57,357 nucleotides of DNA, from positions 1-57,357 of the forward strand of contig JAIRND010000066.1 in assembly GCA_031258225.1 (NCBI GenBank), read 5' to 3'. Numbering within the stretch: the stretch's first letter is position 1; every line of letters begins with the position of its first letter. The notes beneath the pieces were generated by a model, which was given only the letters and a program-made list of their open reading frames with translations, was not told where the DNA came from and searched no databases. The stretch comes from Treponema sp. GTDB taxonomy: Bacteria > Spirochaetota > Spirochaetia > Treponematales > Breznakiellaceae. The translations under genes were made by a program, and so were the position numbers. Below, piece by piece: positions 35,981 through 42,418 of this stretch.

Positions 35981-36922
35981 GTGGCGGGTACCGCGCTGTA
36001 CGATCAGTTTTACTCACGGCTCATTGCCCAGGAGCGCCGTTCCCCGCTGACGGCGGAGACGTACCGGACGGAGGCGCGGCGTTTCCTGGACTGGCTTGAC
36101 GCGGAGGGGCTGCAGCCGGCCTCGGTGGATTCTTCCGGTCTGTCCAGGTATCTGGACAGCCGCCGGAAGATAGACCGGATTGATTCCCGGTCCACCGCCA
36201 AGGCGATTTCCGCGCTTAGATCTTTTTTTCGTTTTACGATTGATGAATCGATCAGGGGCGATAATCCGGCCGCTGTTCTGGAAATGCCCCGGCAGCCGCT
36301 TCGCCTGCCGGAGGTGCTTTCCCGGGAAACGGTGGAACGTCTTCTCAACGCGGTAAACAGCGAGACCCCCCTGGGGCTGCGGGACCGGACGATCTTTGAG
36401 CTTATCTATTCGGCGGGTCTCAGGGTTTCCGAGGCGGTGTCTCTGGACCTGCGGGACCTTGAACTGCCCGATCCCGCCTCCGGTACCGCGGAGGGCGGCG
36501 GAATTGCCCGTGTAAAGGGCAAGGGGAACAAGGAGCGCCTGGTGGTTTTTGGGGATATTGCCGCCTTTTGGCTGCGCCGCTATCTAAAAGAATCCCGGCC
36601 GGGACTCGTGAAACATCGCCACAGCCGGGCCCTGTTTGTCGGCCGTTCCGGAAAACGTCTTTCCCGAAAGGGTATATGGAGGAACTATGCCCGCTTTACG
36701 TCTTTGGCGGGGACCAGTTCTCATCTCCACGCGCTTCGGCACAGTTTTGCTACGGAGTTACTTTCCGGCGGGGCGGATCTCCGTTCCGTACAGGCCCTGC
36801 TGGGGCACAGCGATCTGGCGACCACCCAGATCTACACCCATGTGGATGTTTCCCTGCTCCGGGAAAGCCACCGGAAATTCCTGCCCAGGCTGGGAAACGG
36901 GGCGCGGGAGTCCAAGGCGTGA
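35981..36922 (+). CDS. xerD: tyrosine site-specific recombinase XerD
   Basis: LRHSFATELL, LLGHSDLATTQIYTHV. GTG start. Confidence 0.8.
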   Translation: MAGTALYDQFYSRLIAQERRSPLTAETYRTEARRFLDWLDAEGLQPASVDSSGLSRYLDSRRKIDRIDSRSTAKAISALRSFFRFTIDESIRGDNPAAVLEMPRQPLRLPEVLSRETVERLLNAVNSETPLGLRDRTIFELIYSAGLRVSEAVSLDLRDLELPDPASGTAEGGGIARVKGKGNKERLVVFGDIAAFWLRRYLKESRPGLVKHRHSRALFVGRSGKRLSRKGIWRNYARFTSLAGTSSHLHALRHSFATELLSGGADLRSVQALLGHSDLATTQIYTHVDVSLLRESHRKFLPRLGNGARESKA

Positions 36923-37668
36923 AACTAAAACGGGGGACCCTGCCGGGCCTGGTTGTACTGTTCGTGATTGCCGGCGTGATCCTGGGGATCTACCTTGCCG
37001 AGCGGCAGAAAAGCCGTTACGAACTGGCGCGGCGTATCGCGGAACTGAGCCCCCGGGGGGGGACGCCCGTTACGATAGACGGACTCCGCAAGGCCATTGC
37101 CATCTATGCGGAGGCGCTTGAGGAACATGTGCGGGACGCCGCCCAGACCGGTACCTACTGGAAAATACTGGCGGTGCGGCTGGCCGATAAGGGGATGCAC
37201 CGGGACGCGCTGGACGCGCTGGACATGGCGATCCGCTACAACGGGGAGGACCCGACCATCTTTTACCTTACCGGGGTTTCCGCCGCCACGGTGGCGAAAA
37301 ACGCCCTTGGGTTTTCCCAGGCGGGTTTTCAGGCCGAACGGGATCACTACTTTGTTATGGCGGAGCGGGCCTATCTGCGGGCAATTGAACTTGACAGCGC
37401 CTACGCCAAGCCCCGTTATGGTCTGGGGATACTCTACACATTTGAACTGGAACGGCCCGCGGAGGCTATTCCCCGGTTGGAAGAGTACCTGGACTTGATG
37501 AGCCGGGATGTGGACGCCATGTTTGTCCTGGCCCGCGCGTACTATATGACTGATAATTATGAACGGGCGGTGGACCTTTACGACCGTATTGTCGTGTCAA
37601 CGAAGGATACCGTAAAACAGGACGAGGCCCGGAATTACCGGGACTACATCCTGGGGCAGATACGATGA
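36919..37668 (+). CDS. membrane-anchored TPR-repeat protein
   Basis: GTG 36919 forms a GTGA overlap with the xerD stop. TM segment LVVLFVIAGVILGIYL. TPR-like AERAYLRAIELDSAYAKPRYGLG. Confidence 0.6.
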   Translation: MKLKRGTLPGLVVLFVIAGVILGIYLAERQKSRYELARRIAELSPRGGTPVTIDGLRKAIAIYAEALEEHVRDAAQTGTYWKILAVRLADKGMHRDALDALDMAIRYNGEDPTIFYLTGVSAATVAKNALGFSQAGFQAERDHYFVMAERAYLRAIELDSAYAKPRYGLGILYTFELERPAEAIPRLEEYLDLMSRDVDAMFVLARAYYMTDNYERAVDLYDRIVVSTKDTVKQDEARNYRDYILGQIR

Positions 37669-38612
37669 TGGACCGCGGTTTGCTTGATCTGATGATAATC
37701 CGCATCCCGGCCATAAAGCCGGTGGAACGGGCGGAACTTTGCAAAAAACTCCGGGGGGAAGATGACCTGGTCCGCATGTCCGGTTCCGATCTGGAAACCC
37801 TGCTGGGCCGTCCGCTAAAGCGGCATGCCGGTATGGATACGATCCGTTTTGCCGCGGAACAGGATGCCGCGAACGCGCTAAAACGGGGCATCCGTTGGGT
37901 GTCCCTGGTATCCGCCTCCTATCCGCCGCTGCTCCGGGAGATCTACGATCCGCCGGTCCTGCTGTTTTACCGGGGCGCCCTGCCCGACGCGGACAGGCCG
38001 GCGGCGGCCGTTGTGGGAACCCGGAAGCCCGGGGGGGCTGCCCTTAAAGCGGCCTTTGATATAGGCCGTGGTCTTGGGCTTCAGGGTATTTCCGTTGTTT
38101 CGGGCCTTGCCCTGGGCATCGACGCCACGGCCCACCGGGGGAACCTTGAGGGAGGGGGCAGGACCTACGCGGTCCTGGGTTCCGGGGTGGATGAGATATA
38201 CCCCTCCTCCAACCGCCCGCTGGCGCGGAGGATTCTGGAGGGCGGCGGGGGCATTCTTTCGGAGTATCCCCCCGGCACGGAACCCCAGAAGTGGCATTTC
38301 CCCGCCCGGAACCGGATCATCTCCGCTATGGTCCGGGGGACTCTGATTGTGGAGGCCCCCGCCGCGTCGGGGGCGCTGATAACCGCCCGCTTTGCCCTGG
38401 AACACGGCCGGGATCTGTGGGTTTCATCGGCGGGCCTGGGGGCCGCGGGGACCGCCCGTTTGGCGGGGGAGGGGGCTAAAATCATCGCTTCCGCTTCTGA
38501 TATAGTACGTGAATGGGCCATCGCGGAACAGGCGGAACAAGTGGAAGACCGGGGCGCTTCCATCGGCAGAACCCTTGCCGATTCCCTGGCCCGGCGCCTG
38601 GCGATACGGTGA
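37665..38612 (+). CDS. dprA: DNA-processing protein DprA (Smf)
   Basis: GLALGIDATAHRG, AVLGSGVDEIYP, FPARNRIISA, GALITARFALEHGRD. Confidence 0.9.
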   Translation: MMDRGLLDLMIIRIPAIKPVERAELCKKLRGEDDLVRMSGSDLETLLGRPLKRHAGMDTIRFAAEQDAANALKRGIRWVSLVSASYPPLLREIYDPPVLLFYRGALPDADRPAAAVVGTRKPGGAALKAAFDIGRGLGLQGISVVSGLALGIDATAHRGNLEGGGRTYAVLGSGVDEIYPSSNRPLARRILEGGGGILSEYPPGTEPQKWHFPARNRIISAMVRGTLIVEAPAASGALITARFALEHGRDLWVSSAGLGAAGTARLAGEGAKIIASASDIVREWAIAEQAEQVEDRGASIGRTLADSLARRLAIR

Positions 38613-38646
38613 GGTTCCGCGCGCGGCGGTTTGTAAGGAAAAACGA

Positions 38647-38721
38647 ATGACTGTGAAGGCAATGACTGTGAAGGCAATGACTGTAAAGGCAATGACTGTG
38701 AAGGCAATGACTGTGAAGGCA
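38647..38721 (+). repeat. 5 x 15-bp perfect-register tandem repeat (ATGACTGTGAAGGCA), each unit starting with an in-frame ATG
   Basis: Units at 38647, 38662, 38677 (one synonymous G to A), 38692 and 38707. They encode (MTVKA)x5 at the topA N-terminus. Confidence 0.95.
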
Positions 38722-40917
38722 GAGAATAGCGATAAAGCTGAAAACTCCAAGCCCAAGGCGGTACGGCGCGGTGTCCGTAAGAAGCCCGGCAAAAAGCCGG
38801 AGAAAAAGACCCTTATCATCATGGAATCCCCCCACAAGGCGGAAACCGTTCAGAAGATACTGGGTTCAGACTACACCGTAAAGGCCTGTATCGGCCATTT
38901 AATCGATTTACCCAAGTCCCGGCTTGCCATTGACGTGGATCACAACTTTGAGCCTGAGTATATCACCGTCCGGGGACGTTCAAAACTTTTGAAGGAACTG
39001 CAGGGGGACGCGAAAAAATCCGGCATGGTTCTCCTGGCCAGCGACCCGGACCGGGAGGGGGAGGCCATTGCCTGGCACCTTAAAAACGCCATTGCCGCGA
39101 AGACCGACAAGGTTCCGGTCCGGCGGATCAGCATCAACGAGATTACCCCCCAGGTTGTCCGGGACGCGGTAATAAAACCCCAGGATATTAACGAGGACCT
39201 TGTAAACGCCCAAAAAGCCCGGCGGGTGCTGGATCGCCTGGTGGGGTACAACCTTTCACCGCTGTTGTGGAAAAAAGTGAAAAACGGCCTGTCTGCGGGA
39301 CGGGTACAGTCCGTGGCCCTGCGGATAATCTGCGAACGGGAGAAGGAGGTGGAATCCTTTATCCCGGAAGAGTACTGGACTCTGGACGCGGACTTCAGGC
39401 TTGGGCGTTCCGCGTTTACCGCCCAACTGGTCAGTTGGCGGGGGGCCAAGCCGGAATTGAAAACTGAAGAAGCGGTCAATAAGATCATCGCCGAGATTAA
39501 ACATGCCGATTGTGTGGTCGGGGAAATCCGGGAGACCGACAGGATCGTGCGGCCCCGGGCCCCGTTTACCACCAGCCAGATGCAGCAGACCGCGGCCAAC
39601 CGTCTGGGCTTTACGGCCCGTAAGACGATGCAGGTGGCCCAGCAGTTGTACGAGGGGATCAACATCGGCGCCTCCCGGGTGGGGCTTATCACCTACATGC
39701 GTACTGACTCGGTGCGCGTATCCCAAACCGCCCTGGCGGAGCTGCGGGACTGGCTGGGTAAAAACTACCCCGGCGACTTTCCCGAAACGCCGAACGAATA
39801 CTCGGTGGGGAAAAAGGCCCAGGACGCCCACGAGGCGATCCGGCCCACGTTTGTGGACTACACCCCCGACTCGGTAAAGGAGTACCTTAGCCGGGATCAA
39901 CTGCGGCTCTATACGATTATCTGGGAACGGTTTGTTTCCAGCCAGATGAACAACGCCAAAAACCGGTCCCTGAGCGCCGATATTGCCGCGGGGGAGGCCC
40001 TGTTCAGGATCACGGGGACCAAACTTATCGAGCGGGGATTCTACAAGGTTATCAAGCTGCTCTCCGGCAAGGAGGAACAGGGTAATCCCTACCCCTCCCT
40101 TAAAACCGGGGACACGGTAAAGATGGACAAGTTCTACCCCGACCAGCATTTTACCCAGGGGCCGCCCCGCTATACCGACGCGTCCATCGTGCGGGTTCTG
40201 GAGGAAAAAGGCATAGGCCGGCCCTCCACCTACGCGCCGATTATTTCGGTGCTTCTGGACCGTTACTACGTAACACGTTCCAATAAACAACTGGTTCCCA
40301 CGGTTTTGGGCAGACTGATAAATGACATGCTGGTGGAGTATTTTCCCCACTATGTTGACGCCGCCTTTACCGCCGACATGGAAAACAAACTTGACAAGGT
40401 GGAAGATAACGCCATTCAGTGGCCGGACATGATCCGGGAATTCTGGGACCCCTTTAAGGACCGCCTGGACAATGTGGGAAAGACCCTGGAATCCTACAAG
40501 GGATCGCTGGACGAGCCCACCGATTATGTCTGCGAAAAATGCGGCAAGCCCATGCTGAAAAAGCTGGGCCGCTTTGGGTTCTTCCTTGCCTGTTCCGGTT
40601 TTCCTGAGTGCAGGAATACTAAATCCATACCGCTGGCAACGTGTCCCAAGTGCGGGGGCGACGTTGTGGCCCGGAAGAACCGGGGCCGGGGCAGGGAATT
40701 CTACGGCTGCGTGAATTATCCGGCCTGCGATTTTATCAGCCACTACAAACCCATCAACCAGAATTGCCCCAAATGCGGTCAGTTCCTGGTGGAAAAGTAC
40801 GACAAAAAGAACGGGTACCATAAGGCGTGTATCAACCCGGATTGTGATTACCTTCATAGTGAGGAAGATGAGGTGGAGGGCCCCGGGCCGGGGGAAGGCG
40901 GTGAACATGAAGAATAA
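38647..40917 (+). CDS. topA: DNA topoisomerase I
   Basis: Toprim LIIMESPHKAETV, ASDPDREGEAIAWH, active-site region GLITYMRTDS, and C-terminal Cys4 zinc ribbons. Start placed at the first repeat ATG (AAGGA at 38635-38639). ORF-track start 38509 overlaps dprA and is rejected. Confidence 0.93.
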   Translation: MTVKAMTVKAMTVKAMTVKAMTVKAENSDKAENSKPKAVRRGVRKKPGKKPEKKTLIIMESPHKAETVQKILGSDYTVKACIGHLIDLPKSRLAIDVDHNFEPEYITVRGRSKLLKELQGDAKKSGMVLLASDPDREGEAIAWHLKNAIAAKTDKVPVRRISINEITPQVVRDAVIKPQDINEDLVNAQKARRVLDRLVGYNLSPLLWKKVKNGLSAGRVQSVALRIICEREKEVESFIPEEYWTLDADFRLGRSAFTAQLVSWRGAKPELKTEEAVNKIIAEIKHADCVVGEIRETDRIVRPRAPFTTSQMQQTAANRLGFTARKTMQVAQQLYEGINIGASRVGLITYMRTDSVRVSQTALAELRDWLGKNYPGDFPETPNEYSVGKKAQDAHEAIRPTFVDYTPDSVKEYLSRDQLRLYTIIWERFVSSQMNNAKNRSLSADIAAGEALFRITGTKLIERGFYKVIKLLSGKEEQGNPYPSLKTGDTVKMDKFYPDQHFTQGPPRYTDASIVRVLEEKGIGRPSTYAPIISVLLDRYYVTRSNKQLVPTVLGRLINDMLVEYFPHYVDAAFTADMENKLDKVEDNAIQWPDMIREFWDPFKDRLDNVGKTLESYKGSLDEPTDYVCEKCGKPMLKKLGRFGFFLACSGFPECRNTKSIPLATCPKCGGDVVARKNRGRGREFYGCVNYPACDFISHYKPINQNCPKCGQFLVEKYDKKNGYHKACINPDCDYLHSEEDEVEGPGPGEGGEHEE

Positions 40918-41848
40918 AGCGGCGGGGGGTACGGATTTTCCCGTTGCGGAAGACTGTCCCGCCGTAATGCGGGAGTACCTTTCCTATTTGAAGGCGGTGC
41001 GGGGGGTTTCCGACAGGACCATTGAAGCCTATGGGAAGGACCTTTCCCATTTTGCCGCCTATTGCCTCAACTTCGCGCTGGATCCGGAAAAACTGGATAC
41101 CAAGGAACTGCGGGGCTTTATCGCCGATCAGAGCGCGGAAGGGGCCGCCGCGGTAAGCGTGAACCGGGCCCTGTCTTCCATCCGGGGATTTTACCGCTGG
41201 ATGGTCCGCTTTGGCCGCCGGCAGAATAACCCCTGCGATACCCTGCGGAACCTCAAGAGCCCCCGGAACCTGCCCAGCTTTCTCTGGGAACCGGAAATGG
41301 CCCGTTTCGCCGTACTGCCGGAAACCGCGGGGATCCTGTGGCCCTCCCGGGACAAGGCCCTGATCCTGACCATGTATTCGGCGGGGCTGCGTATTTCCGA
41401 ACTGGTCTCCCTTTCCCTTTCCAAACTTGAACCCGATTTTGGGGGCGCCCGCGTTATCGGCAAGGGGAACAAAGAGCGGTTTGTGTTCTTTTCCGACGAG
41501 GCGCGGGAGGCGCTGTCAATCTACCTGCCGGAACGGGAAAATCGAATCAAGGCGGACGGGAAACAGCCTGTGGACCGGGTCTTTGTCAACCGTAACGGCG
41601 GGGCAATCTCGGTTCCCGGCGTGCGGTGGATCATCGCCAGATACGCGGAGCGTTCCGGTTTGGGAAAGCGTATCCATCCGCATAGCCTGCGCCACAGTTT
41701 TGCCACCCATTTGGTCAATTCAGGCTGCGATGTACGGGTGGTACAGGAACTGCTGGGCCATGCCAGTCTTTCCACGACCCAGCGTTACACCCATGTGGAT
41801 ATTGAGCGGCTCAAGAAGGTCTACGCAAAGGCGCATCCTCATGGCTAG
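40907..41848 (+). CDS. xerC: tyrosine site-specific recombinase XerC
   Basis: LRHSFATHLV, LLGHASLSTTQRYTHVDIERLKKVYAKAHP. Confidence 0.8.
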   Translation: MKNKAAGGTDFPVAEDCPAVMREYLSYLKAVRGVSDRTIEAYGKDLSHFAAYCLNFALDPEKLDTKELRGFIADQSAEGAAAVSVNRALSSIRGFYRWMVRFGRRQNNPCDTLRNLKSPRNLPSFLWEPEMARFAVLPETAGILWPSRDKALILTMYSAGLRISELVSLSLSKLEPDFGGARVIGKGNKERFVFFSDEAREALSIYLPERENRIKADGKQPVDRVFVNRNGGAISVPGVRWIIARYAERSGLGKRIHPHSLRHSFATHLVNSGCDVRVVQELLGHASLSTTQRYTHVDIERLKKVYAKAHPHG

Positions 41849-41872: not shown

Positions 41873-42418
41873 GTGAAACACGACAAGGAAGTACGGTCCA
41901 CAACGGTACTGGCGGTGCGCCGTAACGGTAAAGTGGCGATGGCCGGAGACGGCCAGGTAACGATGGGGGAGACGGTGATGAAGAACAACGCCCGCAAGGT
42001 ACGCCGTCTGGCGGAGGGTAAAGTCCTCTGCGGCTTCGCCGGGGCCACCGCCGACGCCTTTACGCTGTTCGACCGCTTCGAGGAAAAACTCAAGGAGTAC
42101 TCCGGGGACCTCCGCAGGGGGGCGGTGGAGCTTGCCAAAGAGTGGCGGACCGACCGGACCCTGCGGCGTCTGGAAGCCCTGCTCCTGGCGGCGGATGTGA
42201 ACGCCACCCTTCTGATATCGGGAACGGGGGATGTGATTGAACCGGAGGATGACGCCCTTGCCATCGGATCGGGGGGGAACTACGCCTACGCCGCGGCCCT
42301 GGCCTTTCTTGAGGGGAGCGCCTTGTCCGCCGCGGAGATTGCGGAAAAGAGCCTTGCCATCGCGGGGACCATCTGTATCTACACCAACAACCGGATCGTG
42401 GTTGAGGAATTGTCATAA
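41873..42418 (+). CDS. hslV: ATP-dependent protease subunit HslV
   Basis: [29 protein letters not shown]. Confidence 0.93.

Follow-up and report, generated by a model that had tools for sequence, protein, structure and literature searches.

Introduction

In-frame coding VNTRs of bacteria serve MLVA typing; their unit is a multiple of 3, they vary between strains, and they alter protein length only. A different kind of repeat is represented by the tetranucleotide contingency loci of Haemophilus influenzae, which are reported to bring about translational phase variation (PMC12721329). Repeats have also been described in TopA. According to Strzalka et al. 2017, lysine repeats at the C terminus of actinobacterial (Streptomyces) TopA make the complex of enzyme and DNA more stable and give processivity (PMC5714199).

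Here, we present an analysis of a tandem array at the start of topA in a Treponema-like spirochaete. The window, by which we mean the whole 57,357-nt stretch of DNA analyzed, belongs to an assembly that is a metagenome bin of 254 contigs and 76.5% complete. Sequencing runs carrying the stretch are labeled termite gut metagenome, and homologues in public databases bear the names Treponema sp. or Spirochaetaceae.

The array resembles in-frame coding VNTRs in that it runs head to tail, has a 15-bp unit (a multiple of 3), and lies inside an ORF; its copy number may also differ between strains. That the repeated region is translated is supported by sequence comparison, in which the unit is homologous to a conserved MAVK N-terminus behind a conserved ribosome site. 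Unlike the unit of typical VNTRs, the topA unit holds the initiator ATG together with the first four sense codons, such that each copy adds a potential start; and unlike VNTRs in surface proteins, the array sits in the only topA of the genome. With the contingency loci of H. influenzae, the array shares a slippage-prone repeat at the 5' end of a coding sequence, near start codons. However, such contingency loci have units that are not multiples of three, or act in the promoter or 5'-UTR, and switch on and off, whereas the array keeps the frame; moreover, in contrast to their long uninterrupted tract, the topA array is short (5 units) and interrupted by GTA. Thus, the array is not a contingency locus by the on/off definition. 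Similarly to the repeats of actinobacterial TopA, the array contributes to a low-complexity, Lys-bearing, repeat-built extension outside the catalytic core. Those repeats, however, belong to another phylum, are made of other units, and extend the other terminus of the protein. By analogy, the Lys-rich tail of the spirochaete protein may be a counterpart of the actinobacterial C-terminal lysine repeats.

The reading that we favor, with a probability of roughly 0.7, is that slippage or unequal recombination amplified five codons of topA, that translation starts at the first ATG, that four extra MTVKA units are carried on a tail modeled as disordered, and that the copy number drifts. Of this reading, we infer the slippage origin, the first-ATG start, and the neutrality.

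Results

A 15-bp unit is repeated five times at the start of topA

The features that define the locus are as follows.

37665..38612, + strand: dprA (DNA processing protein A) ORF, the upstream neighbor (ORF list; Pfam PF02481 DNA_processg_A, E 1.4e-65)
38635..38639, + strand: Shine-Dalgarno (SD)-like AAGGA, 7 nt (AAAACGA) before the first ATG; AAGGAAAAACGA-ATG is conserved in same-genus relatives
38647..38721, + strand: tandem array of 5 × 15-bp ATGACTGTGAAGGCA, encoding (MTVKA)x5, whose first ATG (38647) is the likeliest start codon
38647..40917, + strand: topA (type IA DNA topoisomerase I); read from the first ATG, it encodes 756 aa (ORF; Pfam)

In the window, the unit ATGACTGTGAAGGCA occurs five times head to tail at 38647-38721. 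The sole difference between units is in unit 3 (38677-38691), in which GTA replaces GTG, a synonymous change (Val). TRF reports the repeat at 38646-38721 with a period of 15, 5.1 copies, 96% matches, and a score of 145. A preliminary description, made from the sequence alone, had proposed five back-to-back 15-bp units with a synonymous change in the third, and both the sequence and TRF confirm it. It had also placed the array in frame at the topA start, behind AAGGA and ahead of a Lys-rich tail and the Toprim domain, and this placement is correct. The same is true of its argument that slippage of a 15-bp unit would alter the length of the product and not switch the gene off, the ORF being open from any of the five ATGs. 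By contrast, the statement that GAAGG stands before every next ATG needs narrowing: AAGG does precede each following ATG, but unit 3 has AAAGG instead of GAAGG, and the GAAGG of the last unit precedes GAG and not an ATG.

The score of 145 tops all 32 TRF rows of the window (runner-up, 117). When the window was shuffled 50 times with its dinucleotides preserved, the top TRF score of a shuffle had a median of 44 and never exceeded 64, and a uniform-chance estimate for the array is ~8e-30 for the window. Searching the 2.61-Mb assembly with the two-unit pattern gave four overlapping matches, all at the array, and none elsewhere (control, 0). Around the array, there were no Rfam matches in 38400-38950 at E up to 1, no promoters and no terminators in a scan of 37400-39000 (0 and 0), and no inverted repeats in 38300-39000.

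The array translates as (MTVKA)x5, which is followed by ENSDKAENSKPKAVRRGVRKKPGKKPEKK and then TLIIMESPHKAE. By its domains, the product of 38647-40917 is a TopA: Pfam Toprim (PF01751) covers residues 55-166 (profile positions 1-96 of 96, E 2.3e-17), Topoisom_bac (PF01131; the core, domains II-IV) covers residues 181-596 (E 9.5e-120), and Zn_ribbon_Top1 (PF01396) matches in three stretches (E 1.2e-29), corresponding to C-terminal C4 zinc ribbons. Among the TopA chains in the PDB, 6ozw aligns from query residue 45 and 2gai from residue 54. The whole assembly (G000) contains a single match for topA.

The stop codon of dprA is at 38610-38612, leaving 34 nt between the stop and the first ATG of the array. 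Two genes for XerC/XerD-type tyrosine recombinases (PF00589 and PF02899) are located near dprA-topA at 35981-36922 and 40844-41848; one is two ORFs upstream, past the ORF at 36568-37668, and the other is directly downstream. The gene order dprA-topA-xerC-hslV is known from Firmicutes and spirochaetes, and the ORF at 41873-42418, which follows the downstream recombinase, may be hslV judging by this gene order.

Relatives have a single copy of the unit

A protein search of 40 related genomes gave a match in 39, and we inspected the loci of 29 relatives together with that of the window, 30 in all. A single N-terminal unit was present in 29/29 of the relatives' topA loci. Five of the six same-genus genomes begin MAVK(T/A/D/E) and the sixth begins MAID; in those five, the start is preceded by AAGGAAAAA(A)CGA-ATG or a close variant. 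One genome (G005) reads TGAAGGAAAAACGA-ATGGCAGTAAAGGCAGAG, in which ATGGCAGTAAAGGCAGAG aligns with the last unit of the window and its flank. No Met-containing unit is repeated in any of the 119 clusters of homologous proteins listed from a collection of 5.8 billion proteins, and in the relatives and the listed clusters, the N-terminus is mostly MAVKA or MAVKT in one copy. Seven of the nine best-matching homologues are 736 aa long, i.e., 756 minus 20. The single conserved MAVKA/T N-terminus of the relatives argues that the array is the amplified N-terminus of topA itself and not new sequence; by sequence comparison, it is a lineage-specific amplification in which topA multiplied its first five codons, the initiator ATG among them.

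A scan for the unit junction in species-representative genomes, among which the window's own genome may be absent, revealed no second array: it returned 28 loci with one match each, all in taxa that are unrelated by title, with 0 spirochaetes. The sole metagenome-contig match to the 5' junction (L035) is an unrelated AT-rich stretch, and we rejected it as a strain variant. Exact look-up of the protein in forms shortened by 1-4 units, and of an 802-aa form from an upstream GTG, showed that these are absent from the collection. A literature search, with subscription journals outside its coverage, found no paper on a start-codon-containing topA repeat or on the N-terminal tail of spirochaete TopA. 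The preliminary description had called the array an unusual VNTR on an essential gene; this stands in the sense that it is the sole case among the relatives searched.

Initiation signals within the array

As no 16S rRNA was found in the assembly, the anti-SD sequence was taken from four same-family genomes (16S 3' end, GGATCACCTCCTTTC). TAAGGAA before the first ATG pairs with this 16S tail at −5.1 kcal/mol and leaves a 7-nt gap. The internal SD-like duplexes have energies of −4.0 to −5.4 kcal/mol, nearly equal to that of the main one; the GAAGG within a unit accounts for about −4.0 kcal/mol. The GAAGG or AAGG of a unit is separated by 2 nt from the ATG that follows it and by 8 nt from the next in-frame GTG. 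A spacing of about 5-9 nt between the SD and the start is needed. Of the units that follow an AAGG, units 2, 4, and 5 have this GTG, and unit 3 has GTA. The first such codon is a candidate:

38668..38670, + strand: in-frame GTG of unit 2, which the AAGG of unit 1 precedes by 8 nt; it may be a weak secondary start (duplex energies)

The in-frame GTGs at 38698 and 38713 may likewise be weak secondary starts.

These signals bear on the possibility that the array is a multi-start module, in which each unit supplies AAGG, an in-frame ATG, and an in-frame GTG, and the copy number, set by slippage, tunes the dose of TopA and thereby supercoiling, making it a graded contingency locus. The 75 nt of the array hold five in-frame ATGs and four in-frame GTGs, the spacing between AAGG and the GTG of the next unit is good, the duplex energies rival that of the main site, and the copy number seems to vary between strains (see below). 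However, the gap of 2 nt between AAGG and ATG is too short. The idea of the preliminary description that every unit offers a potential initiation site is, accordingly, weakened for the internal ATGs, which have 2 nt where the first ATG has 7; the GTGs are the more plausible secondary starts. Moreover, AAGG simply represents the Lys-Ala codons AAG GCA, which are present in single-copy relatives as well, and the absence of the module from the loci of 29 relatives and from the 119 listed clusters argues against a conserved device. Unit 3, with its GTA, is an interruption that should reduce the rate of slippage. mRNA folding of the region from −70 to +150 gave a mean unpaired probability near the first ATG of 0.49, compared with 0.55-0.73 in four single-copy relatives; the predicted accessibility of the start is, thus, no better, and nothing suggested that the array makes the start more open than it is in these relatives. 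Altogether, we consider a multi-start module unlikely. Internal initiation, if it occurs, is more plausible at the GTGs than at the ATGs judging from the spacing, and it would merely trim the tail by a few residues.

The Lys-rich N-terminal tail

The part of the tail that follows the array is the following.

38722..38808, + strand: remainder of the Lys-rich N-terminal tail, residues 26-54 ENSDKAENSKPKAVRRGVRKKPGKKPEKK (translation, model, homologue statistics)

In 117 homologues, the tail is 12-68 residues long (median, 30); its K+R fraction is 0.38 and its net charge +7. In two same-order genomes, it is AK/KP-rich and ~100 residues long. Exact tandem peptide repeats are present in 9/117 homologue tails, e.g., MAVKTVKTVKT in P0095, and the tail encoded by one genome (G003) has KAKAAT three to four times. 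Based on these sequences, the tail is repeat-prone among homologues, and the array in the window is the only case among the homologues compared in which the expanding unit includes the first codon. We also notice that small tandem repeats of the types VKT, KAKAAT, and KPKAA have often rebuilt the TopA tail in this spirochaete family. In an AlphaFold2 model of the window protein (48-sequence alignment), residues 1-49 have a pLDDT below 50 and no secondary structure precedes residue 55, the first strand spanning residues 55-59. The tail is, thus, low-complexity and, in this protein, modeled as disordered.

By analogy to the actinobacterial enzyme, it could be argued that a longer DNA-binding tail has been selected, in which case the repeat expansion would add lysines and the start codon would be included merely because the unit is at the tip. 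The net charge of the window tail (+13) is higher than that of the nearest single-copy forms (+10 to +12) and the median of the 117 homologues, and relatives, too, expand Lys-bearing units of the kinds mentioned above. A unit with one Lys and no acidic residue, together with Lys-bearing repeats in relatives, would also fit selection for a basic tail. Yet MTVKA has only one Lys per five residues, and the K+R fraction drops from about 0.37-0.40 to 0.31. In addition, the difference between strains, two compared with five units, argues against strong selection for one length, and the actinobacterial comparison concerns the opposite end of the protein. On balance, we find selection of the tail doubtful.

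Translation most likely begins at the first ATG of the array

The gene calls for the contig differ by 58 codons: the JGI call has 756 aa and begins at the first ATG, whereas the NCBI call has 698 aa and begins at Met59 (MESPHKAE), with its start ATG at 38821-38823 (P0002). The latter lies in the first strand of the Toprim domain.

38809..38823, + strand: Toprim strand 1 (T55-L-I-I-M59) (Pfam; PDB 2gai; model strand E55-59)

NCBI forms of 698-699 aa that begin MESPHKAE, omitting the tail and strand 1, are also present in three relatives (P0022, P0024, and P0026).

If the protein did begin at Met59 (ATG 38821), the array would be located in an untranslated 5' leader, for which the NCBI calls for this contig and the three relatives speak. 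However, Met59 is the final residue of Toprim strand 1, given that Pfam begins at residue 55, 2gai aligns from 54, and the model strand spans 55-59. In 13/30 loci, the corresponding position is GTC, GTT, or GTA, which are unable to initiate. In 30/30 loci, no stop interrupts the frame between the MAVK ATG and Toprim, and a conserved ribosome site precedes the MAVK ATG in the nine upstream regions examined, of which six are same-genus. The nearest GGAG is 18 nt before ATG 38821. Because Met59 lies inside Toprim strand 1 and its position has non-start codons in relatives, and because the frame is open and the ribosome site conserved, we infer that translation most likely begins at the first ATG. 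An untranslated array is, accordingly, very improbable, and the NCBI start at Met59 is probably wrong and probably reflects a systematic start-site miscall in this genus.

Copy number in metagenome contigs

Parts of the stretch are carried by seven runs from three studies, none of them an RNA run, and the contigs of four runs were mapped to the window. Run X1 (share 0.96) probably represents the source sample, in which case it is no independent evidence; one of its Logan contigs, 74 nt long, is identical to 38647-38720 and supports an arrangement with two units on each side of the variant unit. The X1 contigs break exactly at the repeated 31-mer, and the depth of the inner contig is 6.4 compared with 20.3 and 14.4 for the flanks. 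This gap in depth may reflect mixed repeat alleles in one sample, or noise.

Another study contributed run X2, in which a 640-nt contig aligns over 619 letters with 11 differences (about 98% identity). It joins 38645 to 38691, skipping 45 nt, and so has two units instead of five; at the joint, 31 letters fit either side. Unlike the X1 contigs, it passes the array without a break and is the only X2 contig there, which speaks against a collapsed repeat. We take Logan contigs to be assembled from 31-mers, and with such an assembly the two-unit path is also the shortest route through a longer perfect array. X2, thus, has a probable two-unit allele, with the reservation that contigs can collapse tandem repeats, and the copy number is probably polymorphic between strains (two compared with five units), as judged from one short contig of one other study. 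The preliminary description had suggested a comparison of copy number across strains and metagenomes; the two-unit X2 contig points to variation, on the evidence of contigs in which repeats may have collapsed.

That the copy number or the repeat itself was made by the assembler is the least credible of the alternatives: the bin is fragmented and incomplete, and short-read assembly is error-prone at tandem repeats, but the separate Logan assembly of X1 gives the identical 38647-38720, in which two GTG units stand on either side of the GTA unit, X2 of another study has at least two units, and the variant unit should make words longer than about 31 nt unique and the five-unit path unambiguous.

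Other repeats in the genome

Across the whole assembly, TRF gave 398 rows with a score of at least 50 and 20 rows with a score of at least 145. Of these repeats, 61 rows combine a period divisible by 3 (no longer than 60) with three or more copies and at least 85% matches, and two of the 61 include the first ATGs of an open frame of at least 150 aa, namely, topA and the ORF at C165:10793. The latter is a DEAD-box helicase ORF (PF00270 and PF00271) that opens with an ATG-holding 12-bp repeat at C165:10793-10828 (L040:494-529). It begins with ATGCAAAAGCAT twice and then ATGCACAAGCAA, which translate as MQKH MQKH MHKQ. This second Met-containing repeat at the start of an ORF suggests that such duplications recur in this genome. 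However, orthologues of the helicase lack the first ~30 residues, and an in-frame GTG at that point may be its true start, making the MQKH case ambiguous; the orthologue in G001 (L043) opens with MENMEN. A 21-bp tandem repeat with the consensus GATGAAAGAAACCGACAGGCA is also present on several contigs (C81:1424-1564 and C147:2449-2555, also C251, C23, and C53). Its copies on C81 and C147 lie within ORFs of about 230-240 aa and are translated as (MKETDRQ/R)n heptads.

Discussion

We suggest that replication slippage or unequal recombination amplified, in frame, the beginning of topA in one species-level lineage of termite-gut Treponema-like spirochaetes. Ribosomes would start at the first ATG, which is the sole one properly spaced from the conserved AAGGA, and the TopA so made would be 20 residues longer, with (MTVKA)x4 added to the tip of its Lys-rich tail. 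Because the length and sequence of the tail differ freely among relatives, the extra units are likely tolerated and near neutral; the case for neutrality is an argument from this tolerated variation. Seen in this way, the array would be an ordinary in-frame coding VNTR for which strains appear to differ, with two compared with five units. The additional ATG and GTG codons would be a by-product that allows, at most, slight internal initiation and, consequently, slightly shorter tails.

It is improbable in our view that the array tunes the dose or the DNA binding of TopA. We are equally skeptical of the more specific proposal that it is a selected, slippage-adjustable dial on the only topA, acting via start sites or via the length and charge of the tail, such that copy number would determine TopA dose or processivity, and through these global supercoiling, in the strains of different termite guts. 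If it were true that copy number tunes TopA dose or DNA binding, the array would be a rare graded contingency device on a core enzyme of DNA topology, and the Met-containing repeat of the helicase ORF would be a second dial in the same genome.

The finding has consequences for the annotation, the organism, and the enzyme. With its start at Met59, the NCBI call removes part of the Toprim fold. For an uncultured termite-gut spirochaete, the array would be a ready strain marker. Moreover, a single, presumably essential topA appears to tolerate a tandem amplification that takes in its start codon and the first codons after it, and we suggest that it does so because these codons fall in a tail that is modeled as disordered.
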